A DNA stretch of 64,000 nt from a bacterium (GTDB taxonomy: Bacteria > Joyebacterota > Joyebacteria > Joyebacterales > Joyebacteraceae): positions 3,640 to 67,639 of the forward strand of contig JALGZK010000010.1 of assembly GCA_025774935.1 (NCBI GenBank), read 5' to 3'. This document shows positions 3,154 through 34,657 of the stretch, in pieces (the first letter of the stretch is position 1; each line of letters begins with the position of its first letter). The notes below the pieces were generated by a model, which ran no database searches, had not been told where the DNA came from, and saw only the letters and a program-made list of their open reading frames with translations. Position numbers and translations under genes: made by a program.

Positions 3154-3933
3154 CTACTTCCTGCGCCTCCTCACCACGCCGACCATGCCGACGATGCCGC
3201 TCCCCAGGAGGATGAGCGTTCCGGGCTCCGGAACGACTCCAGCGCCGTCGATGCCATCGAACGTGCCGTTGAGACTGACGAGGTCGTTGCGGCACCCGAG
3301 CGTCCACTCGAGGCCAATCCCCTCGCCGATCCCGGGGTTCATGAGCAGGCTCTTCGAGATCGTCACTTCGAACACGTACGTTCCGAAGCCGTTCTCCATG
3401 AGGCCGTAGTCGTAGTAGTCGACAGTGGCCGTGCCGAGATCGACGCCGCCCGCGAAGTTCGACGGCCCGGTCTCAGCCACGAAGTGCGTGTTCGCCTGGA
3501 ACCAGTCGGTCTCTTCCGTATCGGCCACCTGTCCGGTCCCACCGTCGATGTCGACACCGAGGTCGTAGGTTCCCCCCCCCAGATCGATGGCCAGGTCACC
3601 CGGGACTACCTGCTCCCCGAGGAACTGGACTCCGTCGGGAATCGGCAGGGACGTCACGACCGCGATGTAGGCGTTGGTTGCGTCGTCATCGAAGTACATA
3701 GCCTCGATGTCGAACTGCTCACCGCCGTACGGACGTCTGCCCAGGTGTGTGCTCCAGTTGTCGTCGGCGAAGTACTCGGCCGTCTCCGATGTCGGCGTCC
3801 AGTCGTGGGTGAAGTCGCCGAATCTGTCGACGGCCAGCTCCACTCCGAACCAATCGGAGAGGAGCGCCGCCCCGGCGGGAACCGCCGAGAGCAGCAAGAG
3901 CACGCCGACGCCGAGGATCAGAAGTCGTCTCAT
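3154..3933 (-). CDS. PEP-CTERM sorting-domain protein (putative exosortase substrate)
   Basis: ORF 3154..4032; start at internal ATG (MRRLLILGVGVLLLLSAVPAGAA signal peptide) with AGGAGG about 7 nt upstream. C-terminus VPEPGTLILLGSGIVGMVGVVRRRRK is VPEP + hydrophobic helix + Arg/Lys tail; Gly/Asp/Thr-rich body. Confidence 0.85.
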   Translation of the reverse strand: MRRLLILGVGVLLLLSAVPAGAALLSDWFGVELAVDRFGDFTHDWTPTSETAEYFADDNWSTHLGRRPYGGEQFDIEAMYFDDDATNAYIAVVTSLPIPDGVQFLGEQVVPGDLAIDLGGGTYDLGVDIDGGTGQVADTEETDWFQANTHFVAETGPSNFAGGVDLGTATVDYYDYGLMENGFGTYVFEVTISKSLLMNPGIGEGIGLEWTLGCRNDLVSLNGTFDGIDGAGVVPEPGTLILLGSGIVGMVGVVRRRRK

Positions 3934-4332
3934 GGCATGCCTCCTGTGAGGAAGGACAATGGAATCATGATCATGAACGCAAAGAACACCAACGCCGCTA
4001 CTGCCACTGCTATGCCCGCTCTCATGCGTCACCTCTGGTTGCCAGCTCTTGGTGTCGGTGCACGAGGTGTTTTCCTTGACAACTTCAATAGTATCACAAG
4101 TAGCCAGCCCTTGACAAGTGCTTTTGTTGGTGCATTTGTCATTTGATGGCTAACTTGTTATCTCATGGTCTTTTACGGGGTCGTTCGGTCGTGAGGGGCT
4201 CAAGGGGCGGGGCTGGGAACCCTCAGCGGGCGGCCCCTGGGGCCCCATTCACGGTCCCCCCGGGCCCCTAACGACGTCGCCCGCGGCCGGAGGGGCGGCC
4301 GCGGGCGGGTAGCGTAGGGGTGGCTGTGCCGG

Positions 4333-9371: not shown

Positions 9372-10853
9372 TCACCCTTCGGTGCTGTCAAGGTCACCCG
9401 GACCGCGAGCGGCGCGCGGGCGGCTGTCGCTCGGGTCGAATCCCTCGGAACGCCCCGCTTCCCGCGGTTTTCTTCTTGCGAGTGACTTGAATCCTGTGAC
9501 ATCGATTTCGTATTTTCGAATGAGATCGTAGACGGTCGACCGGCTCACGCCGATCGAACGGGCCGCACGAGAGACGTTGCCGGCGGCCCGCCTGAGCGCG
9601 TCGACGACGATCTCGTGTTCCAGTGCGTCCTTCGCTTCACCGAGTGTCTGCGCGCGCCGTTCAGTCTCGGAGTCGAGCCCGAGGTCGGCCGCCGTGAGCC
9701 TGTGACCGGATGACATGACGACCGCGCGCTTGACCCGGTTCTCCAGCTCGGGGATGTTCCCGGGCCACTCGTGCGCCATCATCGCCCGCACCGCCGACCG
9801 GGTGAACCCCGACAACCTCCGCCCGTGCTCGGAGGCGCAGCGCTCGAGGAGGTCCTCCGCGAGAAGGGCGATGTCCTCGCCCCGCTCTCTGAGCGGGGGC
9901 AGCGTGACCGTCACCACGCTCAACTGATAGTAGAGGTCCTCCCGGAACCCGCCTTCCGCGACGACCTCTTCCAGATCGTCATCGGCGGCAGCTATGATCC
10001 TGACGTCCGCCTTGATCGGATCGTGCGGGCCTTTCCGCTCGATCTCTCCCGACTGAAGGAACGCGGAGAGCCGAGCCTGAAGATGCTGCGACAGCTCGTC
10101 GACTCCTACGACGAACAGCGTCCCGCCGTCGGCCTGTTCGATTCGGCCCGGCATCTTCTCCGCGCCGTTGAACGTCCCGTTCCCGTTGCCGTTTCCGAAG
10201 ACCTCGGCCTCGAGGTACTCGGACGGCGTCGCGCGCAGGTCGACAGCGACGAAGGGCCCTCGCGAGCGGCGACTCAGGTGGTGGATTCCTCGGGCGATGA
10301 GCTCCCTTCCGGTTCCTCGTTCGCCCACGAGAAGCACGCCGACTTCGGTCGCGGCGACCTTCCTGGCGGAGGAGAACACGTCCTGCATGGCCTCACAGGT
10401 CCCCGCCAGGCTGTCGAGGCGCTCGACGCCCGAGAGACGGTCCGGAACGGCGTCCGCGGCCGCCTCCAGCTCCTGGATCCTGAGCGCGCGCTTCACGAGG
10501 ACCCCGAACTCGTCGATGTCGAAGGGCTTCACGCAACAGTCGCACGCTCCGAGCTCGATGGCGCGGACGGCGAGGTCGCGGTCCCCGCTCGGGGCGACCA
10601 CGATGATCTTGAGCCTGAGCCTGGCCTTCCGCGCCAGCCGGAGGAGCTCGAGCTCCTCGCCGGAGCCCTCTTCGCCGCGCTCCAGCGTGCCGTCGAGCGT
10701 CATCACGTCCGGGCGGAACCGGCGGACGGCCTCGATGGCACCGGCGATCGTGTCGGAGGCGCACACGTCGTAGTCGCGCGCGAGACCTTCCCGGAGCAGC
10801 CTCCGGGTGACCTCGTCGCCTTCCACGATCAGGACTCTCTTGCGCTCGGACAC
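9372..10853 (-). CDS. prsR: Sigma-54-dependent response regulator (NtrC/AtoC family; PrsR-like PEP-CTERM-box regulator)
   Basis: 493 aa, GTG start with GGAGG upstream; receiver domain (VLIVEGDE...DVMTLDG), AAA+ sigma-54 interaction domain (LLVGERGTGRELIARGIH, GAFxGA-like FNGAEKMPG, EWPGNIPELEN), C-terminal Fis-type HTH (GNVSRAARSIGVSRSTVYDLIRK). Confidence 0.85.
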   Translation of the reverse strand: MSERKRVLIVEGDEVTRRLLREGLARDYDVCASDTIAGAIEAVRRFRPDVMTLDGTLERGEEGSGEELELLRLARKARLRLKIIVVAPSGDRDLAVRAIELGACDCCVKPFDIDEFGVLVKRALRIQELEAAADAVPDRLSGVERLDSLAGTCEAMQDVFSSARKVAATEVGVLLVGERGTGRELIARGIHHLSRRSRGPFVAVDLRATPSEYLEAEVFGNGNGNGTFNGAEKMPGRIEQADGGTLFVVGVDELSQHLQARLSAFLQSGEIERKGPHDPIKADVRIIAAADDDLEEVVAEGGFREDLYYQLSVVTVTLPPLRERGEDIALLAEDLLERCASEHGRRLSGFTRSAVRAMMAHEWPGNIPELENRVKRAVVMSSGHRLTAADLGLDSETERRAQTLGEAKDALEHEIVVDALRRAAGNVSRAARSIGVSRSTVYDLIRKYEIDVTGFKSLARRKPREAGRSEGFDPSDSRPRAARGPGDLDSTEG

Positions 10854-10956
10854 GATCCTCGGTTCCTCCAGCTACGGACCGGGCGTCGGGCGGGTCTTCC
10901 GCCCCGCGGCGCCCACACGACCCCTCCGGCTTCCCTGCGGTGCCCTGCCGGTGCTC

Positions 10957-12486
10957 CTACTCGGGCAGGGCCTCCAGCTGCCGGGCCGCCTCTTCCGCCC
11001 ACGGCTCTCCGGCGTACGTGCTCGCGATGTCCTCGAGCACCTCGCGCGCACTGGCGAAGTCCTCGAGCTGCCTCGTGTACAGATCGGCGGCCTGCAGCTT
11101 CATGATCGGCGCGTCCTCCGAGTCGGGCAGAAGCTCCGACGTCTCTAGGAGGATCCGCGCCGCCGCCTCCCACTTCTCCTGTCGGATCCGCGCGTCGACG
11201 AGGTACCCGCGGGCGGCAATCTCGGCCGACGTCCCGGCGTACTCCCTGATCACGCGCGTGTACTGCTCCACGGCCCGCTCGAGCGTGCTGGCCCCGACCT
11301 CCTCGTCACCGCTCTGGACGTACCGGTCGGACACGTGGATGAGTGCGCGGAGGCCGTACAGCGTGGTCGGGTACTCGCGCGCGAGAACGCTGTACTGCGC
11401 CGCCGCGCGATCCCAGTTCCCGGTCGCCTCGAAGCTCATCGCCAGGTACTGCATCGCCGTGGCGCTCACGACCTGCTCGGTCGTAAACTCGTCGATGACT
11501 CGTGAGAGGCGCCGCCGCGCGTCGTCGTGGCGCCCCGCGGCGAGGTCCTGTCTCGCGAGCGAGACGGCCGCCGTCGCGCCCGACACGTCGTCCCCGTACT
11601 CGCTCTCGACCCTCTCGTAGTACTCGCGCGCGAGACCGTTGCGCCCGAGTCTCGTCTCGTAGATCTCGGCCAGTCCGAGCCAGAGGGGCGCGCGGTTCTC
11701 GGGCGTTCCGAAGTCGCGGTCGAGCTCCTCGTACACCCTGGCCGCTTCCTCCCAGCGGTCCTCGAGCCCGTAGCTCTCCGCCGTGAGCGACGTCGCGAGC
11801 TCCGCGGTGGGCGATTCCGGCCACTCCGCGATCCAACGGGCGTAGTACTCCCTGGCACGGTCGGACCACGCCGCCGCCTCGGCCGCATCTCCCCGAGCGC
11901 GGTAGACCGCCGCGACCGACAGGGGCGCGCGGAGGATCCGCGTGTCGGGACTCGACTCCGGGTCGCGGGCGGGCTGCCAGTCCTCAATGAGCCCCGCGTA
12001 GACCGCCACGGCCTCGGGCCACCTGTCCTCGCGCCGCTCGACGGCGCCGAGCGCGAGCGTCGCATCGATCGCAAGGCCCCTCTCGAGCGCGTAGCTGTCT
12101 CGCACGGACGAGTAGAGGCGCCGCGCCTCGTCGAAGTCCCCGCGGTCCATCGCGAGCTGCCCGAGCGCGAGCCTGCTGTGCCCGGAGATGCGGGCGATCT
12201 GCCTGGCGACCTCGGAGACGCCCTCCGAATCCCCCTCGGGTGGCGGGAACGCCCGCGTGATGTTCCGGTACTCGTCCTCGACGCGGGCGCGCATCTCGTC
12301 GGTGTTCATACCGGGGTTGACGCTCACCGCGCGCATGAGGCTGCTCGCGCGCCAGGCCATTCTCTCGGCCTCGTACCTGTCCCTGATCTCCCTCGATGAT
12401 TCGCATCCGACGCACACGGCCACGACCACGATCAGGAGGACCGCCGCGAGCCGCCTTGCTGCGCGAGTGTCTCTCAGTGTCATCAT
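10957..12486 (-). CDS. TPR-repeat lipoprotein (PrsT-like)
   Basis: ORF 10957..13209; start at ATGATG 12481-12486 (MMTLRDTRAARRLAAVLLIVVVAVCVGC, lipobox) with GGAGGG upstream; TPR-like helical repeats throughout. The longer N-terminal extension in the track is Arg-rich and rejected. Confidence 0.75.
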   Translation of the reverse strand: MMTLRDTRAARRLAAVLLIVVVAVCVGCESSREIRDRYEAERMAWRASSLMRAVSVNPGMNTDEMRARVEDEYRNITRAFPPPEGDSEGVSEVARQIARISGHSRLALGQLAMDRGDFDEARRLYSSVRDSYALERGLAIDATLALGAVERREDRWPEAVAVYAGLIEDWQPARDPESSPDTRILRAPLSVAAVYRARGDAAEAAAWSDRAREYYARWIAEWPESPTAELATSLTAESYGLEDRWEEAARVYEELDRDFGTPENRAPLWLGLAEIYETRLGRNGLAREYYERVESEYGDDVSGATAAVSLARQDLAAGRHDDARRRLSRVIDEFTTEQVVSATAMQYLAMSFEATGNWDRAAAQYSVLAREYPTTLYGLRALIHVSDRYVQSGDEEVGASTLERAVEQYTRVIREYAGTSAEIAARGYLVDARIRQEKWEAAARILLETSELLPDSEDAPIMKLQAADLYTRQLEDFASAREVLEDIASTYAGEPWAEEAARQLEALPE

Positions 12487-13367
12487 GGCCGTCCCTCCCC
12501 TCCGGCGCCGGGAACGGCTGCGCCCGGCGCTTCGTCCTGCGTCAGGTGGAGGAAGAGCCGCGTGATGCCGCCGAGCGTCACGTAGGTCGCGAAGAAGAGG
12601 ACGACGACCCAGATCACCATGAGGAGCGGCACGAGCACCGGGGAGAACGTGTGCGCGATCGTGGCGCTCTGCCTCCACAGCCAGAGCGGCAGGATCTCGA
12701 GCGCGGCCGGCATGGCCACGAGCAGGAACGTGGCGACCGGGGTCCTCCCGAAGAGCACCAGGCTGCCTCCGACCGCCGCGCGCACGCTCCTTCCCGCGAG
12801 CACGATGTAGGGTGCCGTGTAGACGAGGACGGCCTGGACGAAGAGGACGACGAGGATCGTCGATCCCCTCACCACCCGGAACGTCCTCGGGCTCTCCTCC
12901 GCGAGATACCCGAAGAACGCGTAGGACGTCCTCGTCACGATCTGAGCGAGACCGACGGCGATCACCGCCGCGACCACGAGCGACCAGTACCTCGACGACG
13001 CCCGGCTCCACGCCTCCCCGAACCCCACCCGCCTCCGCTGATAGAAGGTGCCGAAGAGCACGATCCCCGTCGCCGCGGTCACCGCTCCCAGGAAGACGGC
13101 CAGGAACGGGTCGAGCTCGCCCAGCCCGGCCCTGAGCACGAGGAAGTTGTTCGGGTAGTGCAGCACGGACTCCCCGAACCGCCACCTCAGGAGCGGCACC
13201 ATGAACCACGAGACGACCGGGTACGCGAACCCGCCGATCGCGGCCAGGATCGCGGCCTGCCCCGCGGCGTAGATGGCGAACGGGAGGAGCGCCACGCGCC
13301 GCGAAAACGCCCTGAACGTCTCCACCCAGCCCCAGATGAGAGCATTGATCTGATCGATGAGGCCCAT
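12483..13367 (-). CDS. Uncharacterised polytopic membrane protein embedded in the exosortase operon
   Basis: 294 aa with about 7-8 hydrophobic helices; stop TGA overlaps the TPR-lipoprotein ATG (ATGA); no recognisable family motif. Confidence 0.65.
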   Translation of the reverse strand: MGLIDQINALIWGWVETFRAFSRRVALLPFAIYAAGQAAILAAIGGFAYPVVSWFMVPLLRWRFGESVLHYPNNFLVLRAGLGELDPFLAVFLGAVTAATGIVLFGTFYQRRRVGFGEAWSRASSRYWSLVVAAVIAVGLAQIVTRTSYAFFGYLAEESPRTFRVVRGSTILVVLFVQAVLVYTAPYIVLAGRSVRAAVGGSLVLFGRTPVATFLLVAMPAALEILPLWLWRQSATIAHTFSPVLVPLLMVIWVVVLFFATYVTLGGITRLFLHLTQDEAPGAAVPGAGGEGRP

Positions 13368-13463: not shown

Positions 13464-14108
13464 TCAGCCCTCCCCGGCGAACACGAAGAGCTCCGGAAGG
13501 CGCACGAGCGCGGCCTCCGAGAAGTCCTTCAGCACCTCCATGGCGCCGTCGAAGTCACCGTCCCTCACGACGGTCGACACTCTAACGAACGCTCCGTAGG
13601 TCACGTTCGACACGATCCCCGACGCTGCCATCCGCGTCATGAACTTGTCGCGGTCGGCCGTCGCCAGATCCCCCGCCGTGTACCACCAGTAGACCGCGAG
13701 CCGGCGGACGCCCTGCTGCTCGACGAGCACCCAGTTGGCGTCGAAGCCGCCGTCTTTCCTCCAGAGGGGCTCGAGCCCCGAGTCGACGTCCGTCCATCCC
13801 TGGGACCGGTAGCATACGAGCGGCTCGTGCGCGCCGTACCGGTCGTTCTGATGGAAGATGATGACGAACCATATCCAGTCGCCCACGTCGTTCGTGTACC
13901 GCCGCGCCAGCGTGTCCGTCGCCTCGAGTTCCTCGTAGACGACGTCTTCGAACGACAGATCGACGCTGCGCCATCCTCCGAGCTGCGCCGGGAACGCTCC
14001 GAGCGAGCCCGCCTCGAGCTCCATCCTGTCGGGCGGGTTCAGGTGCACGTAGAAGGCGCCCGCCCCGAGGAGCGCGACCACGACGATCGTTCCGAATGAG
14101 GTCCTCAC
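13464..14108 (-). CDS. epsI: EpsI-family exosortase-associated protein
   Basis: 214 aa; N-terminal membrane anchor (IVVVALLGAGAFYV) then periplasmic domain; immediately downstream of exosortase with ATGA start/stop overlap at 14105-14108. Confidence 0.7.
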   Translation of the reverse strand: MRTSFGTIVVVALLGAGAFYVHLNPPDRMELEAGSLGAFPAQLGGWRSVDLSFEDVVYEELEATDTLARRYTNDVGDWIWFVIIFHQNDRYGAHEPLVCYRSQGWTDVDSGLEPLWRKDGGFDANWVLVEQQGVRRLAVYWWYTAGDLATADRDKFMTRMAASGIVSNVTYGAFVRVSTVVRDGDFDGAMEVLKDFSEAALVRLPELFVFAGEG

Positions 14109-15043
14109 GCGCCCCTCCCCTCAGGGGCGGTCTCTTCCCCCTCGCACGTCTCACATCTCAGGAGCTTCCGCACCACCACGAGTCCGACGAACGCGAACAT
14201 GAACAGCAGGAACCCTGAGAAGTCGTGGAAGAACCCGAGCGCGGCGTCGATGCCCCAGACGTGGGCGACGAGACAGAGCGCGGTGATCCTGAGCATGTTC
14301 CCGGCGATCGCGAGCGGCACGCTGACCGCGACGATGACGAGCCGCTTCCACGCGGCGCCCGCCGTCAGATACGCGAAGAGCGTTCCGAGGGCCACGAGCG
14401 CGATGAGCGACCTGAGCCCGCTGCAGGGGTCCGCGATCCGAAGCGACCCGGCCGGGACGTGGATCGTCATGCCCGAGCGGACGAGTGGCACGCCGAGCTT
14501 CGCGGCGAGTGCACTCCCTGAGCGCGCCGCGAAGACCTTGAGGTTGAAACTCAGCACGTTCATGAGGAACGGCGGCCACGGCAGCATGAACACGAGGAAC
14601 GCGAGCGGGAACCAGATCACCCTCGTCGCCCGACCCCCGAAGAAGAAGAGCGACAGGCCGAAGAGCATGAGGACGAACGAGTAGCCCTGCGTCATGAAGA
14701 TGCCCGCACGGATCGACACCACGTTCCCTACGAGCGCGAGAGCGATGATCGCGATGCCCCAAGCCGTCCCCGCCCTCACCGCATCCACGAACCTCTTCCG
14801 CTCGCGCCACAGGAGGAAGAGGACGATCGGCGGGATCAGGAACCCGTGCGAGTAGTTCGGCGAGGACATCCAGGTCCGCCAGAGCGTCGGGAAGACCGGG
14901 TAGTACACGATCGCAACGAGGACGGCCGCCACCGCGAAGCGCGCGAGCTGCCGCGCGGCGAGCGTCCCCCGAGGGGTCGCGCCCCCGCTACCGGTCGCGT
15001 TCCGGAGCTCCGCCCCGTCTCGTCTGTCGTTCCCGGTCGTCAA
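14105..15043 (-). CDS. xrtA: Exosortase (XrtA/EpsH family)
   Basis: ORF 14105..15388; polytopic membrane protein with exosortase-like motifs (ADPCSGLRSL, GNMLRITALCLV). Start assigned to TTG 15041-15043 with GGAGG about 5 nt upstream, overlapping the upstream TGA (TTGA); the Arg-rich 115 codons before it are rejected. Confidence 0.8.
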   Translation of the reverse strand: MTTGNDRRDGAELRNATGSGGATPRGTLAARQLARFAVAAVLVAIVYYPVFPTLWRTWMSSPNYSHGFLIPPIVLFLLWRERKRFVDAVRAGTAWGIAIIALALVGNVVSIRAGIFMTQGYSFVLMLFGLSLFFFGGRATRVIWFPLAFLVFMLPWPPFLMNVLSFNLKVFAARSGSALAAKLGVPLVRSGMTIHVPAGSLRIADPCSGLRSLIALVALGTLFAYLTAGAAWKRLVIVAVSVPLAIAGNMLRITALCLVAHVWGIDAALGFFHDFSGFLLFMFAFVGLVVVRKLLRCETCEGEETAPEGRGA

Positions 15044-16896
15044 CGCTGCTCCTCCGTGCTCAGGCGGGGCCCGCTCTCCTCCCCTCGGGACCTCCTGAGG
15101 GCTCCGAACGTCCCCAGGAGGATCCTGAGATCGAGGAGGAGCGAGCAGTTCTCGACGTAGAACCTGTCGAGCCTGACCTTCTCCTCGAGGTCGATCTCGT
15201 CCCTCCCATTGATCTGCGCCCAGCCGGTGAGGCCGGGCCGGACCAGGTCGACCCCGACCTGGCGCCTGAGTTCGATCAGCTCGTACTGGTTGTAGAGGGC
15301 GGGCCGCGGCCCGACCACGCTCATCTCGCCGCGGAGCACGTTCACGAGGTTCGGGTACTCGTCGGCGCTCGTCCTCCTCAGGAACCACCCGAACTTCGTC
15401 ACGCAGCCGTCCTTCATCTGGCTGTGGTTCATCAGGTCTGTCGCGAGATCCGGCGTCTCGCGGTGCATCGTTCGGAGCTTCAGGATCGTGAACTCCTGTG
15501 AGTAGACGCCGATCCGCCTCTGCGTGAAGTGCGCGTGCCCCGGCGAGTCGAGCCTGACGGCGATCGCCAGGAGCGCGTGGAGGGGCGCTCCCACGATCAG
15601 GATGCCGAATGCCGTGAGGACGTCTAGCAAGTACTTGACCCCGAGGTAGTAGCGGAACTTGAGGTGGCTTCCGCAGAGCGCGCGCTCTGATGCGAGGATC
15701 TCCTCGAGAAGCTCCTCGAGCTTGCCGGCGAGGGCGGTCCTCGAGTACGCGTCCTCGACGAAGACCCGACCGCTCCTCCCGAGCGTGTGGCGCATCTCGG
15801 CGTCACCAAGGAGCGTCTTCACGGCCTCGGCGAGGCCTCGCCCGTCACCCGGCTTCGTCACGATGCCGCTGCCGGCACGTTCGACGATCTCCCGCGCGTC
15901 GCCCTCCACCGCGGCGACTACTGGCTTCCCGCACGCCATGTAGTCGAAGAGCTTCACCGGGATCGTGCTCGCCGAGAACTCCCCGCTCCTCGTCGTCGCG
16001 AGGCAGAGAGCTGAGCGGTGCACGAGCTCGCTGAGCTCGTCCGGCTGCTTGCTCGGAAGGAACTCGACGTTCCTGAGACCCCGCCCGTCGACCTGGCGGA
16101 CGAGGTCCTGCTTCGCGACGCCGTCGCCCACCAGGACGAACCTCGCGTCGCTCTCGTCCCTCAGGATCTCGGCGGCTTCGAGGATCACGTCCATCCCGTG
16201 AACGAGCCCGTGCGTCCCCGAGTAGATGACCGTCCGGCCGTCTCCGCCGTTGCCAGCGGGTCCTCCGGCGGCCGGAGCGAAAAGCTCCGTGTCCGCCCCG
16301 TTCGTGATGAGCGAGATCCTGTGCCGCGGGATGCCACGCTCGAGCATCAGTCGCTCCATACCGGGCGTGACGGCCACGAGCCTCGCTGCCCGGCGGTAGA
16401 GGAACTGCTCGAGGCTCTCCGCGGCGCGGATGGCCCGCCGGCTCCTCAGCTCGCCGAGCTCGACGGCCGCGTGTGGCCAGTAGTCCCTGAGATCGAGCAC
16501 GAACGGGACGCCACGGACGAGTCCGAGGAACCACGCCGTCAGTCCGAGGAAGAGCGGCGGAGAACTCACGAGGACCAGATCGCACTTCCCCGCGGCGCAC
16601 CCGCCGACCGCGGCGGTGATCATGAACGAGAGCTGGTTCGCAACGCGGGTGAAGAACGTCTTCCTGGGCGTCGCGAAGAGGTAGCACCTCAGGATGCGGA
16701 CGCCGTCTACCTCCTCGCGGCAAGCGAGCTTCCTCCGGTAGCGGGGCTGCTTCACGCCGCTCGGGTGGTTGGGCATGCCCGTCACGACCGTCACGGCGTG
16801 GCCCCGCTTCGCGAGATTCGTCGCGAAGTGATAGGCCCGAAGCGGCGCCGCGCCGGTCTCCGGCGGGTAGTACTGTGTCAGGAAGAGGATCCTCAT
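15040..16896 (-). CDS. Bifunctional GT4 glycosyltransferase / PglC-like phosphoglycosyltransferase (Bac_transf) fusion
   Basis: 618 aa; N-terminal GT4 ([35 protein letters not shown]...), C-terminal ~190 aa sugar-transferase domain (KYLLDVLTAFGILIVGAPL...SVVGPRPALYNQYELI...RPGLTGWAQINGR). Confidence 0.85.
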   Translation of the reverse strand: MRILFLTQYYPPETGAAPLRAYHFATNLAKRGHAVTVVTGMPNHPSGVKQPRYRRKLACREEVDGVRILRCYLFATPRKTFFTRVANQLSFMITAAVGGCAAGKCDLVLVSSPPLFLGLTAWFLGLVRGVPFVLDLRDYWPHAAVELGELRSRRAIRAAESLEQFLYRRAARLVAVTPGMERLMLERGIPRHRISLITNGADTELFAPAAGGPAGNGGDGRTVIYSGTHGLVHGMDVILEAAEILRDESDARFVLVGDGVAKQDLVRQVDGRGLRNVEFLPSKQPDELSELVHRSALCLATTRSGEFSASTIPVKLFDYMACGKPVVAAVEGDAREIVERAGSGIVTKPGDGRGLAEAVKTLLGDAEMRHTLGRSGRVFVEDAYSRTALAGKLEELLEEILASERALCGSHLKFRYYLGVKYLLDVLTAFGILIVGAPLHALLAIAVRLDSPGHAHFTQRRIGVYSQEFTILKLRTMHRETPDLATDLMNHSQMKDGCVTKFGWFLRRTSADEYPNLVNVLRGEMSVVGPRPALYNQYELIELRRQVGVDLVRPGLTGWAQINGRDEIDLEEKVRLDRFYVENCSLLLDLRILLGTFGALRRSRGEESGPRLSTEEQR

Positions 16897-18155
16897 GGCT
16901 TCCTTCCGGCCTCTCCTGCCTGCCCAAGCCTCAGTTCCGATGACGTCCGATCCGCGCCCGTGCGGGATCCGCCCGCCGCGCGCAGGAGCGCCGCGAACGT
17001 GTCCTCGACCTTAGTCACGACTGCGGCGATGTCGTGACTCTCGCGCGCGAGCGTCCGGCCGCGCTCACCCATAGAGCACGCGCGCGCGGGGTCGCTCAGG
17101 ATCTCGAGGAGCGCCCTGCCCATCGCGGGACCGTCGCCCGCCGGGACCAGGAGGCCCGACGAGCCGCGCTCGACCACCTCGGGCACCCCGCCGACGTCCG
17201 TCGCCACGACCGGAAGGCCCGCGGCCATCGCCTCCATCAGGACGTTCGGCGTGCCCTCGGAGGTCGACGAGAGCGCGAAGGCGTCCATGAGCCCGAGCAC
17301 CCGGGGCACGTCCTCCCGGACGCCCGCGAAGATCACGGCGTCCGCGATCCCGAGCTCGTCGGCAACGCGGCCGAGTTCCTGTCTCCTCGCGCCGTCGCCG
17401 ACTATGAGGAAGCGCGCGTCCGGCAACGACCTCGCGACCACCGCCGCCGCCGCGAGGAAGTGCTCGTGTCCCTTTACGTCCGAGAGTTTGCCGACGATCC
17501 CGACCACGGGGTGCCCGTCCGTGCCCAGCTCCCGCGCGAGGTTCCCGTCCCGGAGGACGTGCCGGCTTCCGGCTCCGCCCTCCGTGTCGCCGGGTGCATC
17601 CACCGCCGCTCCCCTGACCGCGCTCCCGACCGAGTAGGGCGTCAGGTCTATGCCGACGCCCACGTTGACGATCTTCCGTTCCGGGACGCGGAACCGCTCG
17701 ACGAGCTCCCTGGCCGCCGCCGCGCTGTTCACGAGGACCGCGTCGACGACCCGACGGTTCGCGTACCCGTAGACCTTCTCCTTCGTTCCGCCCGTGAGCC
17801 AGTACGAGAGGTTCCTCTGGTTGTTCACGACGACCGGCACCCGAGCGGCGCGTCCGACGAACGGCCCGACGATGGTCGTGAGGCCGAGCATGCATGAGAG
17901 AATCTCCACCCGCTCGCGCCTCAGGAACGACGCCGCCCGCGGAAGACCGCGGACGGTCCCCGCCGAGAGAGCGCTCGCCCCGGTCCCGAACTCGTGGACC
18001 GGGACTCCCAAGGACTCGATCACCGGGAGCAGCTCGCCGCGCTTCGCCGTCGACATGACGACCGGGTCGAAGCGCTCCCGGTCGATTCTCGAGAGGAGCT
18101 CGACGAGGAAGCGCTGCGTGCCGGCCCGCTCGAACGACCCGGCCCAGAACGCCAC
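16893..18155 (-). CDS. GT4 family glycosyltransferase
   Basis: 420 aa, GTG start; GT4 C-terminal motifs ([36 protein letters not shown]); stop overlaps the downstream ATG (ATGA). Confidence 0.85.
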
Positions 18156-18224: not shown

Positions 18225-19499
18225 TCACGACGCCGCCTCCTGACGTTCGCCCGTCGGCCCCGCGACGTCACGGCCGCCGCCGCGCGTCGGCCGCGATCGG
18301 GACGATGCGGTCACCTCCCGGAGCGACGAGTGGTTCGGGCGCGAGAGCCGCGCGTACTGGATGTCCGCCGCGAGCCATCGGACGTCCGCGTCGTGCGGGA
18401 CGATCCCGAGCCGGGGCAGGCAGTGCACGGGGTACCGCCTTGAGACGGGCCCGGCGATCGAGGTCACGCCGGATCTGAACCCGGCGTCGGCGACGACCGC
18501 GGCCGTCGTCGCGTCGAAGTGACGGTTCGTCCTTCCGTTCGGGTAGGCGAAGTGCTCGACCTCGCACCCTAGGAGCTCCTCGAGGGCGCGCTTCGACTCC
18601 CCCACCTCGCCGACGAGCGCGTCGGTCGAGACGCTCGGGAGGTTGTAGTGCGTCACCGAGTGCGCGCCGATCGTCATCCCGCCCTCGTGCATCTCCCGGA
18701 TCTCGTCCGGGTTCATCATGATCCTCGAGTCGTACGTGTCCCGCGAGTTCCCGCATGCCTCCCGGACCTCGTTCACGATCTCGAGGGCCTCGCGTTCGCC
18801 CGATCGCTTCACGACCGCGGTAATGAACGCGATCGCCTTCTCCTTCGCGCGCGGGGTCGAGAGGTCTATCGAGCAGGCGCCGAAGGTCCCGCACTTGAGC
18901 CCTTGAGACTCGGTCCTGCGGATCGCGTGGCGAAGGGCGACGGTCCAGAGGATCGATTCGTCCGAGATCGCTCCCGTCGTCACGTAGAACGTCGCGGTCG
19001 CCCCGTGCTTCCTGAGAATCGGGAACGCACAGCGGTAGTTGTCCTCGTACCCGTCGTCGAACGTGATCGCGACGGTTCTCGGGTCGACCCGTCTGCCCGA
19101 AGCGATGGCGTCCGCAAGTTCGGGCACGCCGACGACGCGGTGCCGCTCCACGAGGTAGGCAACCTGCCTGTCGAAGACGTCCGTCGAGACGACCAGGCTC
19201 CGCTGGACGTAGTCTCCCGCCCAGCCGGGGTCGTCGTTGACCGAATGGTAGCGGAGGATCGTCGCACCGCCCCACGGTAGGAGGCTCATGGCCCTCACGA
19301 GAGGCGCGCAGTTCCGGAACGCGCGGCCGAACCCCCACAGGCCGTCGACGGAGATGGCGCCGTTCTCGTCGATGTACGGGACGTCGCCACGCCCCGGGCC
19401 GAGTCCGGCCCTGTCCGCGTCGCCCCACAGGCAGCGGCTCTCCTCGCCGGTGAGACCACGGCCCCTCCCGCGCTCCCTCATGTCGGGGTCCTTCCTCAT
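18225..19499 (-). CDS. Polysaccharide deacetylase (NodB-homology, PEP-CTERM-locus type)
   Basis: ORF 18225..19538; NodB motifs ILRYHSV and VAITFDDGYEDNY. Start placed at ATG 19497-19499, which overlaps the stop of the upstream tandem GT4 gene (ATGA) with GAGGGAG about 11 nt upstream; ATG 19289 is an alternative. Confidence 0.75.
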   Translation of the reverse strand: MRKDPDMRERGRGRGLTGEESRCLWGDADRAGLGPGRGDVPYIDENGAISVDGLWGFGRAFRNCAPLVRAMSLLPWGGATILRYHSVNDDPGWAGDYVQRSLVVSTDVFDRQVAYLVERHRVVGVPELADAIASGRRVDPRTVAITFDDGYEDNYRCAFPILRKHGATATFYVTTGAISDESILWTVALRHAIRRTESQGLKCGTFGACSIDLSTPRAKEKAIAFITAVVKRSGEREALEIVNEVREACGNSRDTYDSRIMMNPDEIREMHEGGMTIGAHSVTHYNLPSVSTDALVGEVGESKRALEELLGCEVEHFAYPNGRTNRHFDATTAAVVADAGFRSGVTSIAGPVSRRYPVHCLPRLGIVPHDADVRWLAADIQYARLSRPNHSSLREVTASSRSRPTRGGGRDVAGPTGERQEAAS

Positions 19500-21832
19500 A
19501 CCGTGTCGAACTCCCTCGCGCGCAGCGCGTCGACCCAACCCACGAGCCCGGACACCCGCTCGTCGAGCAGTTCCAGGTAGTAGTCGATCGTGTCCTCGAC
19601 CATGTGCTCCGTCGAGAACCTGGCGAGGACGCGTTCCCTCCCGGCCCTCCCCATGCGGCGCCGCAGCTCCTCGTCGCCGAGAAGCTCGAGCACGCGACGG
19701 GCGACCCCTTCGGCGTCGCCCGCGGGAAGCAGGAAGCCGGTCTCTCCCTCCTCGATCAGCTCGGGGTTTCCTCCGACGGCGGTCGCCACGACGGGCCTCC
19801 CGGCCGCCATCGCCTCGAGGACCACGTTCGAGCAGCCCTCCTTGATCGAGGTGAGCACGGACACGTCCGTGCTCGCGAGGACGGCGCCGATCCGGTCGGT
19901 CATGCCGGCGAACGTCACTGCCTCCCCGAGCCCGAGCTTCCGCGCGTGCTCGGTGAGCTCCGCCCTGAGCTGTCCGTCTCCGACAATGAGGAACCGCGCG
20001 TCGGGTCTCTCCCTCGCGATCAGAGCGGCGGCCTCGAGGAACGTCGCGTGGTCTTTCTTCGGGGTCAGGCTCGCGATGACGGTGATCGTGGGGCCGCTGC
20101 CCGCGCCGCTCCCGGGGAACGGCTCCGGAGGAGGCGAGCCGGTCCTCGACGGGACGTTTCCGTCGGCGGGCGCCGCGTCGACGTGGCCGCTGACCCGGCG
20201 GACCGAGATCCCGTTGTAGATCACGCGGATCTTCTCCGGGTCGACCCAGTGCATCTCCGCCACGTAGTCCTTGACCGCGCCGGCGTTCACGATCACGCGG
20301 TCCGTGATGCCAGAGAGGATCCTCTCGATGGCGTTTCCGCGAAACCTCGTGTGAACGTCGACGTTCCGCACCGACGTGAGGACGATCGGGACGCGAAGGA
20401 ACCGTCCGACGATGAGCCCCCTCCAGTTCGCCGACGACAGGAACGCGTGCAGGATCACCGGCCGCTCCGTCCTCACCAGACGCGCGAGCTTGCGGGACGC
20501 GCCGGAGAAGTTACCGAGGCGCTTCGCGAGCACGACCAGACGGACCCCGGCCTCCTCGATCTCGCGGCCGAGCGGCCCCAGCTGGCCGAGGCAGCAGACG
20601 ATCGGCTCGAACCGGTCCCTCGGGAGCCGGGTCGCGAGCTCCATGAGCTGGCGCTCGGCCCCACCGCGTTCGAGCTGTCCGATCACGTAGAGGACCTTGA
20701 TCTTCCCGGCCGGGGCGCGGTCCGCGTGCCCCGAGAGCGCAAGGTCGTAGAGCGCCTCCGTCTGCCCGACCATGTGCTTAGCGGTGAAGGCCTTCTCGTA
20801 GGACCGGCGGGCCGCGGCCGCAAGACGCGACCTCCGCCCGGCGTCCCTCGAAAGGAGAGCTATCTTGTCCGCGAGCGCTTCGTGGTCCCGCGGCGGAACC
20901 ACGTACCCGTTCACGCCGTCCCTGATCACCTCTGGGACGCCCCCGACGGCCGTCGAGACGCACGGGACCCCGGCCGCCATCGCCTCGAGCACCGTGATCG
21001 GCAGCCCCTCCCACGCCGAGGAGAGGACGAAGAGGTCCGATCCCCTGAGGAGCCTCGGCACGTCGTCGCGCGACCCGAGGAACGACACGCGATCGCCGAC
21101 GCCGAGCTCGGCCGCGTGGTCGCTCAGGTGCTGGAGGATCGGGCCGCCGCCGGCGACGGCGAAGTACACGGGCGGGACCAGGTCGGAGACTGCCGCGGCC
21201 GCCCGGATGAGGTTCTCGTGGTCCTTCTGTGGACTGAGGTTGCCGACGGTCAGGCAGAGGACGGCGTCGTCGGGCACGCCCAGCTCGCGTCGCACCTCTG
21301 CGCGGTCGCCGGCGACCGGGCGAAGTGTGTCGTCGATGCCGTTCCGGATGGTCACGAGGCGCGCCGGGGAGAACCTCCCCTCGGCGAGCCGGGACCGGGC
21401 GACGGCCTCCGACACGGCGATCTGCGCGTTCTCGCGCATGCTCGCGAGCCTGCTCAACGCGAGCCTGAATGGGAAGCGAGCCGCGGCGACGTTGTGCTCG
21501 GTGCGGAGCACGGCGGTGGCCCCGCCGAGGATGGCGGCGGGGATTCCGACGGTCATCGCAGTGAAGTTGTGGTCGTGGACGACATCGACGCCGCGTCGCC
21601 TGATTAGACCGGCGAGTCTGAGGACGGCGCGGAAGTCGAGACGCGACCTTCGTTCCAGGGCGTGGACGGGGACGCCGCGTTCGTCGAGGACGGCAGCCAG
21701 GGGACCCGCGTCCCCCACGCAGCACACCTCGGGCTCGTAGCGCGAGCGGTCGTGGGAGGTCGCGTACTCGACCACCACGCGCTCGGCCCCACCGAGCCCC
21801 AACGAACCAACGACGTGGAAGACCTTCTTCAT
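19496..21832 (-). CDS. Tandem GT4-GT4 glycosyltransferase (two complete GT4 modules in one polypeptide)
   Basis: Start at ATG 21832 (MKKVFHVVGSLGLGGAERVV); first module ends ...EALYDLALSGH, second begins KIKVLYVIGQLERGGAERQ; each has an EGxP...EAMAAG C-terminal signature. The 525 codons upstream in the same track ORF are Arg-rich and overlap the CoA-ligase-like gene, so they are rejected. Confidence 0.8.
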   Translation of the reverse strand: MKKVFHVVGSLGLGGAERVVVEYATSHDRSRYEPEVCCVGDAGPLAAVLDERGVPVHALERRSRLDFRAVLRLAGLIRRRGVDVVHDHNFTAMTVGIPAAILGGATAVLRTEHNVAAARFPFRLALSRLASMRENAQIAVSEAVARSRLAEGRFSPARLVTIRNGIDDTLRPVAGDRAEVRRELGVPDDAVLCLTVGNLSPQKDHENLIRAAAAVSDLVPPVYFAVAGGGPILQHLSDHAAELGVGDRVSFLGSRDDVPRLLRGSDLFVLSSAWEGLPITVLEAMAAGVPCVSTAVGGVPEVIRDGVNGYVVPPRDHEALADKIALLSRDAGRRSRLAAAARRSYEKAFTAKHMVGQTEALYDLALSGHADRAPAGKIKVLYVIGQLERGGAERQLMELATRLPRDRFEPIVCCLGQLGPLGREIEEAGVRLVVLAKRLGNFSGASRKLARLVRTERPVILHAFLSSANWRGLIVGRFLRVPIVLTSVRNVDVHTRFRGNAIERILSGITDRVIVNAGAVKDYVAEMHWVDPEKIRVIYNGISVRRVSGHVDAAPADGNVPSRTGSPPPEPFPGSGAGSGPTITVIASLTPKKDHATFLEAAALIARERPDARFLIVGDGQLRAELTEHARKLGLGEAVTFAGMTDRIGAVLASTDVSVLTSIKEGCSNVVLEAMAAGRPVVATAVGGNPELIEEGETGFLLPAGDAEGVARRVLELLGDEELRRRMGRAGRERVLARFSTEHMVEDTIDYYLELLDERVSGLVGWVDALRAREFDTV

Positions 21833-21930
21833 CTCGACAACCCCGTGCACCCTTCCCGGCACTCGAGACGCCGGGTCCTTCGTTTCGCCTCGCTGTCTGC
21901 GCCGAGTCTCGCCCTTCGCGTCGCCCGCCC

Positions 21931-23439
21931 CTACGACGAGGCGCGGGAGGCGCCGGCGCGTTCCTCCTCTGACTCCTCCGTGCTCTCCACCCCGACCTCT
22001 CCCCCGCCTCCCTCCTGGTAGAGGTTCGCCGTGGTCGTCTTCCCCCACACGAGCGGCACCGTGGAGATGACCCGGCGGTACTTGCCTCGGCCGACGAGGG
22101 GAATGTCGTCGACGTACTCGATGGCGACCCGGACGTCGGGACCGAGCCTCTCGGCGATGTTCCTCCTGAGATCGTCCTCGTCGTGCGCCGCGAGCGGCTG
22201 CTTCACCACGAGCCGTGTGGTGATTTCCGCGGGGTCGTGCTGGACGATCTGCGACCTGACGATGCCCGGAAGAAGCTTGAACGCGCGCGCGACCATGAGA
22301 GGCGGCACGAGCCGGCCGTCCGGCGTCACCAGGATGTCCTCCGCCCGCATCGCCACGTCCCTCATGAGCGGCAGCTTCCTGCCGCAAGGGCAGTCGGTCC
22401 CCGCCATGGAGGCGGTGTCGCCGACCTCGTAGCGGATGAGCGGCATCCCGAAGTTGTGCAGGCCGGTCGCGACGACTCGTCCGACCGTACCGTCCGGAAC
22501 GGGGTCTCCGTCGTCGTCGAGGAGCTCCGTGATGCCGAACTCCATGTAGAGGTGGTGCCCCGTGTGCCGGTCGCACTCGCTCGAGTACATCACGCGCTCG
22601 GACTGACTGTAGCCGTCGAAGACCCGGCACTGGAACCGCTCCTCTATCACCTCGCGCTCGACGTCGAGGAGGGGCTCGGACGTCGTGAAGACGCACCTGA
22701 GCGGCAGGTACTCGTCGCGCTCCTCCATGAACCGGGCCAGGACGTACGCCGCGGTCGGGTGCGCGTCGAGCGCCACGACGCCGACCTCCCGCATCGCCTC
22801 GATGTAGAGCGGAGCGGACTCGTCGGTCATGTGGAGCGGAGACAGCATGAGGTAGTTCCACGGCCGGTTGTGGCGCCAGTAGGGAGGTCCCTTCTGGTCG
22901 AGAGGAACGACCGGGCGTCCGAGACACGTGGCGATCGGCTCGCCGAACTCGACCCCGGCCCAGTTCCGCTCGCGCCAGAGGCACGCGTTGTTCATGTAGC
23001 CGATCTCCCGGTCCCAGTACATGTAGAGGGACGAACCTGTCGTTCCGGCGCTGTGCGTCTTCTTGAGTGACTTCCTCGGGGCGGCGTCGGACACCAGCTG
23101 CTCGATGCTCCGGTCGACGTCCGCGCGCGTGAGCACGGGCAGCTTCGGCAGGTCGGAGAGACGAGTGATGTCGCCGGGGACGAGCTTGAGGCCGCTCATG
23201 AGGTCGCGGTAGTAGGGCACCGTCTCGTACGCGTGCCTCACGACCAGGCGGAGTCGCTCCTCCTGGTACGCCTCGAGCTCCTCGAGCGACAGCCACTGTG
23301 ACCGGTCGAGCAGCTCGCTCGCGCGGTCGAAACCCTGCCCGAAGCGCTCGCGGCGCAGCTTCCAGCCGTAGGCCGACATGATCACATTCTGGATCGGCAC
23401 GGGGCACCGGCTGTAGAGTCTCTCTCCGACGTACTCCAT
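21931..23439 (-). CDS. Adenylate-forming enzyme, phenylacetate-CoA ligase (PaaK)/CapK-like
   Basis: ORF 21931..23484; start at ATG 23439 (MEYVGERLY) with GAGGT upstream; motifs SAGTTGSS (P-loop-like A3), YRDL, FKLLPGIVRSQIV; acidic low-complexity C-terminal tail (ESTEESEEE). Confidence 0.7.
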   Translation of the reverse strand: MEYVGERLYSRCPVPIQNVIMSAYGWKLRRERFGQGFDRASELLDRSQWLSLEELEAYQEERLRLVVRHAYETVPYYRDLMSGLKLVPGDITRLSDLPKLPVLTRADVDRSIEQLVSDAAPRKSLKKTHSAGTTGSSLYMYWDREIGYMNNACLWRERNWAGVEFGEPIATCLGRPVVPLDQKGPPYWRHNRPWNYLMLSPLHMTDESAPLYIEAMREVGVVALDAHPTAAYVLARFMEERDEYLPLRCVFTTSEPLLDVEREVIEERFQCRVFDGYSQSERVMYSSECDRHTGHHLYMEFGITELLDDDGDPVPDGTVGRVVATGLHNFGMPLIRYEVGDTASMAGTDCPCGRKLPLMRDVAMRAEDILVTPDGRLVPPLMVARAFKLLPGIVRSQIVQHDPAEITTRLVVKQPLAAHDEDDLRRNIAERLGPDVRVAIEYVDDIPLVGRGKYRRVISTVPLVWGKTTTANLYQEGGGGEVGVESTEESEEERAGASRASS

Positions 23440-23446
23440 CCTCACC

Positions 23447-24550
23447 TCACGAGCGGCGGACCGACCGCGCCGCGCTCGACTCAACGAGCTTCAGGTAGGC
23501 CGTCTCGATCGTCCTCATGTTCTTCGAGAGGTCGCCCCTCTCCTCCACGATCGCCCTGTTGATCTCCGAGGCGCGCGCCCTCAGCTCGCGATCCGAGAGG
23601 GCGGCGGTAATCGCCTCTGCGTACGCCTCCGGGCCTTTGTCTGCGACCAGGAAGCCGTTTCGTCCGTGCTCTATCCAGTGGCGGTTCGCTGCGTTGTCCC
23701 AGACGATCGGGAAGCAGCCGCGCGCCATCGCTTCAAGGAGCGAGGCCGACACGCCGTCGACCCTGACGGCAGCCACGTAGACGCTCGAACTCCCGAGGAG
23801 CTTCGGGAGCTCGTCGTACGCCACTCCCCCCGCGAACCACACGCGGTCGTCAATCCCGAGGTCGCGCGTGAGCCCCTCGAGCTCCGCCGCGCAGTTCCCG
23901 GTCCCGGCGACCGCGCCCGTGATGGCGGGGACGTCCTTCCTGGCGAGCGCGAGCGCCTGGAGCACGACGTCGAGCCTGTAGTGGCGCTGGAGCGACCTCG
24001 TCGTGATCACCGAGTACTCTTCGTCGGCCCCGTCGTCCCGGGGCGCGAACCGCGCGAGGTCGATCCCGCGGGGGCACTCGAAGATCTTCTCCCGGTCCGC
24101 TCCGAGTTCGACCAGGCGATCCGACATGTGGGGCGCCCACGAGTGGATGAGGTCGGCCCGCCGGAGCGTCATCCGTACGGGTATCCTCTTCTGGGCGCGG
24201 AACGGCAGACCGACGATGATCTGGCTCTGCGCGACCACGACCAGCGGGTGGAACCCGGACATCGCGGCCACGAAGCCGTAGCTCGGGACCCGGTACCCGA
24301 CCACGAGGTCGGGCTCTATCTCGGCGATGATCTTCCTCACGCGCGGGATCTTCCCCAGATTCGCTACCCTTCCCGCGAAGCCCGGCTCGCCCTCCACGAC
24401 CGACAGGTCCCGCACGTCGATCGACGGGTCGAGCTCGGCCGGGGGACTCATGGACAGCACGTGCACGTCGTGGCCGAGCACCTTCGAGAAGTGCTCGACC
24501 CAGCTTCGCGTGTTCACGCTGCTGCCGTCTGCGAGAAAGCAGACCCGCAC
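23447..24550 (-). CDS. GT4 family glycosyltransferase
   Basis: ORF 23447..24607; start at GTG 24550 (VRVCFLADGSSVNT) with AGGAGG about 6 nt upstream; C-terminal SLLEAMARGCFPIV...GRNGFLV GT4 motif. Confidence 0.8.
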   Translation of the reverse strand: MRVCFLADGSSVNTRSWVEHFSKVLGHDVHVLSMSPPAELDPSIDVRDLSVVEGEPGFAGRVANLGKIPRVRKIIAEIEPDLVVGYRVPSYGFVAAMSGFHPLVVVAQSQIIVGLPFRAQKRIPVRMTLRRADLIHSWAPHMSDRLVELGADREKIFECPRGIDLARFAPRDDGADEEYSVITTRSLQRHYRLDVVLQALALARKDVPAITGAVAGTGNCAAELEGLTRDLGIDDRVWFAGGVAYDELPKLLGSSSVYVAAVRVDGVSASLLEAMARGCFPIVWDNAANRHWIEHGRNGFLVADKGPEAYAEAITAALSDRELRARASEINRAIVEERGDLSKNMRTIETAYLKLVESSAARSVRRS

Positions 24551-24575
24551 GCCTTGCCTCCTGTGAAACCGTCTC

Positions 24576-29957: not shown

Positions 29958-30011
29958 GCGCTCCTCTCCGGACGCGGTCCCGCGGCTCTGCGCCGCGCGG
30001 CCCGGCGCCCG

Positions 30012-30371: not shown

Positions 30372-30426
30372 CGAGCGCCTCCTCCACGAACCCGGACCGG
30401 CCGCGCGCCGCGGCCCCGGGCACGGA

Positions 30427-32333: not shown

Positions 32334-32338
32334 GCGTG

Positions 32339-34591: not shown

Positions 34592-34657
34592 GTACCCCCC
34601 GTGAGTTCGGATGTGCTCGTGGCATCGATGCCGTCCCGCTCGCTGCTCGAGAGCCGC

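Follow-up and report, generated by a model that had tools for sequence, protein, structure and literature searches.

A glycosyltransferase fused to a PglC-like phosphoglycosyl transferase in an exosortase-linked polysaccharide locus

We analyzed a 64,000-nucleotide stretch of bacterial DNA (the window; contig JALGZK010000010.1 of GenBank assembly GCA_025774935.1, from a genome placed in the Joyebacterota by GTDB) and concentrated on a minus-strand gene at 15040-16896. This gene, an uninterrupted open reading frame (ORF) with an ATG start and a TGA stop, encodes a protein of 618 amino acids (aa) composed of a complete glycosyltransferase (GT) of family GT4 (aa 1 to 405), a 14-residue linker, and a complete small monotopic phosphoglycosyl transferase (monoPGT; aa 420 to 605). 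It is located directly between the gene for a stand-alone GT4 and that for an exosortase, in a PEP-CTERM/exosortase polysaccharide locus of the Wza/Wzc/Wzy type. A preliminary description, made from the sequence alone, had read the gene as a single in-frame polypeptide joining a complete GT4 (aa ∼1 to 400) to a C-terminal, PglC-like Bac_transf domain, and our analysis bears this out.

Long spurious and overlapping ORFs are frequent at the GC content of the window (67%). The 618-aa ORF has a GC content of 0.89 at third (GC3) and 0.47 at second (GC2) codon positions, and since these values are typical of the window's real genes, we consider the ORF to be one of them. GC3 is uniform across the junction between the GT4 and the phosphoglycosyl transferase (PGT), where the frame runs on with neither a stop nor a frameshift, and a search of a protein collection returned an entry that is 100% identical to the protein (P0001). 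We also considered an internal translation start that would yield a separate PGT and judged it unlikely: near the junction, start-type codons in this frame are limited to a TTG (L423) and a GTG (V434), both positioned after the conserved K421 and within the predicted re-entrant helix described below.

The GT4 half (15682-16896) belongs to the retaining-type glycosyltransferases with a GT-B fold and resembles WcaI and WbuB. Pfam places the N-terminal GT4 domains PF13579/PF13439 at aa 20 to 204 and the GT1 C-terminal domains PF00534/PF13692 at aa 218 to 377, and all four score well over their gathering cutoffs. When the N-terminal half of the protein was compared with the PDB using Foldseek, it matched MshA, PglA, BshA, PimA, and WaaG, with target-normalized TM-scores of up to 0.8; no solved chain in the PDB spanned both halves of the fusion. 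The nearest NCBIfam model for aa 1 to 400 is that of the WcaI family (NF007640), and as its score of 178.1 bits lies under the cutoff of 276, we call this half WcaI-like only; the WcaI equivalog model TIGR04007 gave 69 bits against a cutoff of 800.

The canonical EX7E motif of GT4 enzymes is absent from the protein, as the first Glu of the matching stretch (GEFSASTIPVKLFDYMA) is not conserved. It is replaced by a family-specific motif, P313-V314-K315-L-F-D318 (15943-15960). In an alignment of 72 fusions, P313, V314, K315, F317, and D318 of this motif do not vary, nor do G227-T-H-G230, G257, G259, and K262. Stand-alone relatives also have PVKxxD in place of EX7E. We compared 30 fused forms with 114 stand-alone relatives at the positions that are at least 90% conserved in the stand-alone set. 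D138, G227, G257, G259, K315, and G332 were kept in 100% of the fused forms, and G230 and P313 were kept in 97%; for K315, conservation in the stand-alone relatives was 98%. Because these positions persist in the fused forms, we see no sign of decay in the GT4 half.

The PGT half (15082-15639) matches Bac_transf (PF02397) at aa 421 to 599 with an E value of 7e-50 and 169.5 bits (cutoff, 27), covering profile positions 1 to 176 out of 179. The preliminary description had named a C-terminal domain that fails to match Bac_transf as grounds for refuting the fusion, and the domain does match. Its best match among solved structures (aa 420 to 609) is PglC (PDB 8e37/8g1n; E value, 3e-28), and WbaP gave an E value of 9e-26. 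The segment from aa 421 to 450 (KYLLDVLTAFGILIVGAPLHALLAIAVRLD; 15547-15636) aligns to the N-terminal helix of PglC, includes the most hydrophobic 19-residue stretch of the whole protein, and is predicted to form a re-entrant membrane helix. Its helix-breaking Pro438, which corresponds to the Pro of a Ser-Pro pair in PglC, is at least 90% conserved across the 72 homologues; the residue before it is Ala in the window protein and Ser in most homologues. K473, R475, and M477 of the KxRxM motif (aa 473 to 477) are invariant in the same set, and so are Asp512 and Glu513 (15358-15363) and the nucleotide-binding motif G529-PRP532 (15301-15312). Asp512-Glu513 aligns to the PglC sequence SLDELPQL and is the equivalent of the Asp93-Glu94 catalytic dyad of PglC; the dyad, the PRP motif, and the other motif definitions of monoPGTs are described in PMC10186338. 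As judged from the alignment, the PGT half carries the hallmarks of PglC intact, namely, the predicted re-entrant helix with Pro438, D512-E513, and PRP.

We found none of the features of large monoPGTs of the WbaP/WcaJ type. PF13727 did not match, the N terminus lacks hydrophobic segments, and the WcaJ, WbaP, and EPS_sugtrans models matched through their C-terminal cores alone (approximately profile positions 250 to 445), at scores far below their cutoffs. The exosortase-associated model TIGR03013 (EpsB_2) was likewise restricted to the catalytic core (profile positions 254 to 434 out of 443; 132 bits against a cutoff of 393). Under the definition of a bifunctional monoPGT (Bi-PGT) that we used, i.e., a second catalytic domain fused to an end of the PGT core (PMC11626204, PMC10186338), the in-frame GT4 at aa 1 to 405 makes the protein a member of that class. 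By tblastn with the PGT domain, we detected no further Bac_transf domain in the window, which leaves the fusion as the sole priming candidate of this type there.

The two halves are connected by a linker (aa 406 to 419; ALCGSHLKFRYYLG; 15640-15681). An AlphaFold2 model computed from the 72-sequence alignment, with a mean predicted local distance difference test (pLDDT) score of 87 and a predicted TM-score (pTM) of 0.85, contains a GT-B fold, a helix at aa 386 to 405, a short loop, and a long helix at aa 414 to 450 that enters the PGT core. In 70 of the 72 aligned fusions, L397, at the end of the GT4, is exactly 28 residues away from D425, where the PGT helix begins, and the sequence of the linker is conserved as well.

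The preliminary description had proposed a search for orthologous fusions, and these proved to be abundant in independent assemblies. From a collection of 5.8 billion proteins, we retrieved more than 120 cluster representatives with both the GT4 and the Bac_transf Pfam domains, with identities of 50 to 88%, lengths of ∼600 to 640 aa, and 96 to 100% coverage of the query. They originate from NCBI, JGI, ENA, and Logan assemblies, and two of the fused homologues are encoded on contigs of 0.76 and 2.1 Mb. Those that carry an organism name come mostly from Candidatus Eisenbacteria, plus one from Candidatus Limnocylindria, and public databases give the homologues generic names such as "sugar transferase" or "glycosyltransferase."

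We evaluated the genetic architecture of the two parts in a scan of one genome per GTDB species, in which 80 loci were examined at the level of ORFs. Single-ORF fusions were present at loci L001 to L004, from Eisenbacteria and unclassified metagenome-assembled genomes, and at L005, from Microbacterium marinilacus (35% identity). At the other loci with full-length matches, the two parts were mostly adjacent genes, which speaks against a fusion that is widespread in genomes: it is the gene pair that is widespread, and the fusion is recurrent. In ∼24 other genomes, a GT4 gene (∼410 aa) directly precedes a separate gene for a small PGT (∼205 aa), the two often overlapping or abutting. These genomes cover Bacteroidota, Pseudomonadota, Chloroflexota, Acidobacteriota, Cloacimonadota, Elusimicrobiota, and other groups (Pedobacter, Emticicia, Pontibacter, Dokdonia, Chryseobacterium, Olivibacter, Myroides, Budvicia, Sphingopyxis, Halomonas, Hyphomicrobiales, Anaerolineae, Smithellaceae, Acidobacteriaceae, Cloacimonadales, Elusimicrobia, and Planctomycetota). 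Five of the six PGT-adjacent GT4s that we tested resembled the WcaI family, at scores under the cutoff, and the sixth (L009) matched the stp3 model only. The Bacillota loci L046, L048, L070, and L077 have separate genes in the order PGT-then-GT4.

An exhaustive HMMER search of 1.84 billion representatives clustered at 50% identity extended these observations to proteins. Among the best 150 hits, sorted by architecture, we found 31 GT4-PGT fusions (32 to 63% identity, one of them from Armatimonadota), five fusions in the reverse order, PGT-GT4 (P0147, P0153, P0199, P0234, and P0239), and 115 GT4 proteins devoid of a PGT domain, which were mostly stand-alone, about ten being longer with other N- or C-terminal extensions. 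In a neighbor-joining tree of the GT4 domains, the fused forms fell into 13 separate clades, corresponding to at least 11 changes of state, and the window protein grouped with P0023, P0077, and P0121. This distribution follows the classic pattern of two functionally coupled genes, and the GT4 and the PGT would thus form a pair that has been fused or split repeatedly. Beside one stand-alone GT4 relative (locus L083, 1496-4008), we noted a small PGT followed by a PglF/CapD-like 4,6-dehydratase (Polysacc_synt_2) and a UDP-N-acetylglucosamine (UDP-GlcNAc) 2-epimerase, a gene set typical of glycans initiated with N-acetylfucosamine (FucNAc), N-acetylquinovosamine (QuiNAc), or bacillosamine. No PglF/CapD-like 4,6-dehydratase was seen in the window locus, which does have an epimerase.

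The locus around the fusion forms a single minus-strand array, for which we assigned functions with Pfam and NCBIfam unless stated otherwise. Far upstream of the fusion are genes for a Wza-like exporter (34661-35854), a Wzc-like copolymerase/kinase (32342-34657), and a UDP-GlcNAc 2-epimerase (within 31173-32693), the latter being the sole nucleotide-sugar gene seen in the locus. They are followed by genes for a GT2 (30430-31179), a small EamA-type transporter (30015-30467), and a PMT_2/ArnT-like membrane glycosyltransferase (28071-30011), a trio reminiscent of the ArnC/ArnEF/ArnT or GtrA/B/C modules, in which a polyprenyl-phosphate sugar is used for glycosylation in the periplasm. Next come a Wzy_C polymerase-like protein (26600-28345), a heparinase II/III-like protein (24579-26657), a GT4 (23450-24685), a CapK-like protein (21934-23484; named after its orthologue in L081), a tandem GT4-GT4 fusion of ∼800 aa (19499-21928), a polysaccharide deacetylase (18225-19538), and the stand-alone, stp2-like GT4 directly upstream of the fusion (16893-18155), which is a candidate for the next transfer. 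No Wzx-type flippase was recognized among the scanned ORFs.

Directly downstream of the fusion are the genes for the exosortase (EpsH family, ∼312 aa; 14105-15043; PF09721 with an E value of 5e-67) and for exosortase-associated EpsI, a separate gene (13464-14108; PF11984, TIGR02914). The array continues with a 294-aa membrane protein that has no Pfam match (12483-13367), a tetratricopeptide repeat (TPR) protein (10960-12420), and a sigma-54 response regulator (9375-10871). A 292-aa ORF at 3157-4032 encodes a PEP-CTERM protein (PF07589; 26.9 bits against a cutoff of 20.7), a likely exosortase substrate encoded ∼10 kb downstream of the exosortase; inspection by eye of a set of 23 ORFs, which did not include this one, later matched by Pfam, revealed no PEP-CTERM tails. 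The rest of the window carries housekeeping genes (IspDF, RadA-like, DnaB, MlaDEF, CoaBC, GltX, and Ddl), and we consider the locus chromosomal for this reason. Among them, the IspD-IspF (YgbB) gene (43840-45141, minus strand) is a known bifunctional fusion of two enzymes of the methylerythritol phosphate pathway.

Evaluation of the gene borders revealed that the stop codon of the fusion (TGA, 15042-15040) overlaps a TTG in the exosortase frame (15043-15041) in a TTGA motif (15040-15043), as the preliminary description had pointed out. Two further overlaps had escaped it, an ATGA joining the stop of the upstream GT4 to the start of the fusion (16893-16896) and a GTGA joining the stop of the exosortase to the GTG start of EpsI (14105-14108). 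Since all consecutive stop and start codons overlap by 4 nucleotides (nt), the genes for GT4, GT4-PGT, exosortase, and EpsI form a chain of four (13464-18155), which suggests that polysaccharide priming is translationally coupled with a protein-sorting enzyme. In L081 and L082, too, the called exosortase gene starts inside the fusion stop, with overlaps of 4 nt and 1 nt, respectively. All five related loci of sufficient extent (L001, L002, L004, L081, and L082) have the fusion followed by the exosortase and then EpsI, with exosortase identities from 43% to 75%; a membrane protein of ∼290 aa follows EpsI in L001, L002, and L081, and a TPR protein is found further downstream in L081 and L082. 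The exosortase scores 195 bits with the XrtA model (cutoff, 208), and the XrtD and XrtW models score about equally. It may represent an untyped subfamily, found mostly in Candidatus Eisenbacteria and always situated between the GT4-PGT fusion and EpsI.

The tandem GT4-GT4 protein of the locus has two complete modules (aa ∼20 to 386 and 422 to 780), with two matched stretches for each GT4 family, and a GC3 of ∼0.9 throughout. Counterparts exist in L081, as a 794-aa gene, and in L001 and L002, at 50 to 57% identity. With this second fusion in the operon, the lineage seems prone to fusing its exopolysaccharide (EPS) glycosyltransferases.

We propose that the fusion is probably a Bi-PGT that starts the synthesis of an EPS repeat unit and whose GT4 most likely adds the second sugar. 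GT4 enzymes with a GT-B fold use nucleoside diphosphate (NDP)-sugars in the cytoplasm. In the reaction of monoPGTs, which takes place at the cytoplasmic face of the membrane, polyprenyl phosphate receives a sugar-1-phosphate from an NDP-sugar, and the Asp-Glu dyad of these enzymes is essential (PMC10186338, PMC11626204). The C-terminal domain would accordingly dip into the cytoplasmic leaflet via its re-entrant helix and make an undecaprenyl diphosphate (Und-PP)-linked sugar. Because the GT4 is fused to the N terminus of a protein with a re-entrant helix, both domains would be cytoplasmic, and the linker of fixed length would hold the GT4 beside the membrane-embedded PGT. The tethered GT4 could then glycosylate the lipid-linked product, so that one polypeptide would yield an Und-PP-disaccharide, with an alpha linkage made by the GT4 since GT4 enzymes are retaining. 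Other GT4 modules (16893-18155, the tandem at 19499-21928, and 23450-24685) would extend the unit before the Wzy-like, Wzc-like, and Wza-like proteins polymerize and export it. We infer both activities, the consecutive order of the steps, and the topology from sequence and a predicted structure.

Within this proposal, we lean toward the view that the GT4 acts on the immediate product of the PGT. This view is based on the subgroup to which the GT4 belongs, which, unlike the four other GT4 modules of the operon, is recurrently found next to or fused with small PGTs, on the fixed length of the linker, and on two characterized pairings in which a GT-B enzyme uses the product of a PGT. The second step of the respective pathway is likewise the one assigned to WbuB and to WcaI of E. 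coli. As for the two pairings, the small PGT CapM of Staphylococcus aureus makes lipid I-cap, to which the GT-B enzyme CapL adds L-FucNAc to give lipid II-cap, as reconstituted in vitro (PMC6441080), and in Flavobacterium psychrophilum, the PglC homologue WfpB is assigned to initiation and the WbuB homologue WfpA to the addition of L-FucNAc to the first sugar (PMC6519341). The preliminary description had proposed that the protein couples the first and a later sugar transfer; we retain the coupling, and the gene pairs together with CapM/CapL and WfpB/WfpA suggest that "later" should probably read "second."

Several points weigh against the proposal. The ranking used in the genome scan favored loci holding both parts, and the neighbor-joining tree is a rough one that lacks bootstrap support. 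When we picked the five nearest stand-alone GT4 representatives regardless of their neighbors, a PGT adjoined the GT4 in one of the three informative contigs; the pairing of GT4 and PGT is frequent, not universal. Second-step function is transferred by analogy from WcaI, WbuB, or CapL to a GT4 half that scores under the family cutoff, and with EX7E absent, it is an assumption which residues this GT4 subgroup uses in catalysis. No polytopic (WecA-type) PGT was found among the ∼45 ORFs scanned with Pfam, a result obtained without a systematic search for such enzymes, and the limited literature that we searched contained no biochemical data on any GT4-PGT fusion.

Some of these points would favor an arrangement in which both domains are active in nonconsecutive steps, the GT4 building a side branch or adding the third sugar or a later one and the fusion doing no more than anchor a soluble glycosyltransferase at the membrane, next to the assembly site. 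Any of the four further GT4 modules of the operon could perform the second step, and the sub-cutoff WcaI score and the adjacency in just one of three contigs also fit this arrangement. We nevertheless regard it as rather unlikely, given that small PGTs recurrently adjoin members of this GT4 subgroup and are fused with them in either order, which does not apply to the remaining GT4s of the locus, that the linker is of fixed length, and that the CapM/CapL and WfpB/WfpA pairs act consecutively (PMC6441080, PMC6519341). The missing EX7E motif could also be taken to mean that the GT4 half has no catalytic activity and instead modulates or docks the PGT as an accessory or regulatory domain, similar to the noncatalytic N-terminal domains of large PGTs. 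The same motif variant occurs in stand-alone GT4 relatives, however, and 97 to 100% of the fused forms keep the positions most conserved in those relatives, among them K315 and the glycine-rich loops that bind the nucleotide. The window protein is, in addition, modeled with a complete GT-B fold, both Rossmann halves having a high pLDDT; a dead GT4 is thus very improbable.

A trivial origin of the fusion, by a sequencing, assembly, or frameshift artifact, was considered as well, since the parts are separate, abutting genes in many genomes and the loss of one stop could in principle join them. Such an error in one assembly cannot account for the fusion because fused homologues were recovered independently and the linker is constant. 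The fused ORF is shared, at 50 to 88% identity, by the more than 120 independent clusters, which were obtained from various samples with various assemblers; 70 of 72 sequences agree in linker length, and the linker sequence is conserved; the fused ORF is also encoded on the contigs of 0.76 and 2.1 Mb; and GC3 does not change over the junction. We therefore give this explanation practically no weight. In the opposite direction, our proposal can be taken further, to a dedicated "Und-PP-disaccharide synthase" that would hand the PGT product straight to the GT4 site, in a clade that would mark a distinct, untyped exosortase system of Candidatus Eisenbacteria with priming translationally coupled to the sorting enzyme. 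The fixed 28-residue spacing and the repeated independent fusions in both orders speak for the first part and the sub-cutoff XrtA score for the second, and we offer this extended version as a tentative possibility.

Proteins combining a glycosyltransferase and a PGT are an already known kind. Small, large, and bifunctional classes of the monoPGT superfamily were defined by O'Toole, Imperiali, and Allen in 2021, as relayed by PMC11626204, PMC10186338, and PMC10942596. The preliminary description had held that PGTs of the Bac_transf family are normally small, stand-alone enzymes. This does not agree with the literature, in which large monoPGTs outnumber the other classes (PMC10942596) and monoPGTs with an acetyltransferase or a glycosyltransferase at the N or C terminus are a recognized bifunctional class (PMC11626204, PMC10186338), now being purified for biochemistry (PMC12776464); the novelty that it implied for the fusion was therefore overstated. 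Like other Bi-PGTs, the window protein has a PglC-type core, with the predicted re-entrant helix, the Asp-Glu dyad, and PRP, and a second catalytic domain, and glycosyltransferases are explicitly named among the possible partners (PMC11626204). It differs from Neisseria PglB, the best-known characterized Bi-PGT, in that the partner is a glycosyltransferase instead of an acetyltransferase, and its clade stands out by a specific link to an exosortase/EpsI pair.

Campylobacter PglC, a small monoPGT (PDB 8e37, 8g1n, 5W7L family), is similar to the PGT half in length and motifs but is a stand-alone protein. The features of PglC that are specific for di-N-acetylbacillosamine (diNAcBac), i.e., the GLLLP loop, the aromatic box, and the C-terminal extension, identify only users of this sugar (PMC10186338), and because the loop of the window protein that aligns to GLLLP differs, UDP-diNAcBac cannot be assigned as its substrate. 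CapL/CapM and WfpA/WfpB appear, by analogy, to be alike in enzyme types and pathway position, whereas they are separate polypeptides where the window has a single one; those systems use FucNAc- or QuiNAc-type sugars made via a 4,6-dehydratase, the enzyme whose gene was not seen in the window locus. Finally, TIGR03013 proteins are also priming Bac_transf enzymes of exosortase-associated EPS loci but are large PGTs of ∼440 aa with an N-terminal membrane domain, whereas the N-terminal extension of the window protein is a GT4.

The window gene is thus an ordinary further example of a GT-PGT fusion, which does not overturn current understanding and would not surprise a specialist. What appears modestly new is the exosortase-linked clade, mostly from Candidatus Eisenbacteria, its origin in a widespread pair of adjacent genes, and its fixed linker. 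For annotation, we suggest that the generic names be replaced and the gene be called a bifunctional GT4/phosphoglycosyl transferase, the priming enzyme of an exosortase-linked EPS locus. With its confident two-domain model, the fusion family is a reasonable structural candidate for studying how the product of a PGT is handed over to the next enzyme. Ordering the glycosyltransferases in glycan clusters is an acknowledged open problem (PMC11626204), and the GT4-PGT pair, split in some genomes and fused in others, provides a Rosetta-stone link that could help to nominate the second-step GT4 paralogue in hundreds of uncharacterized glycan clusters.

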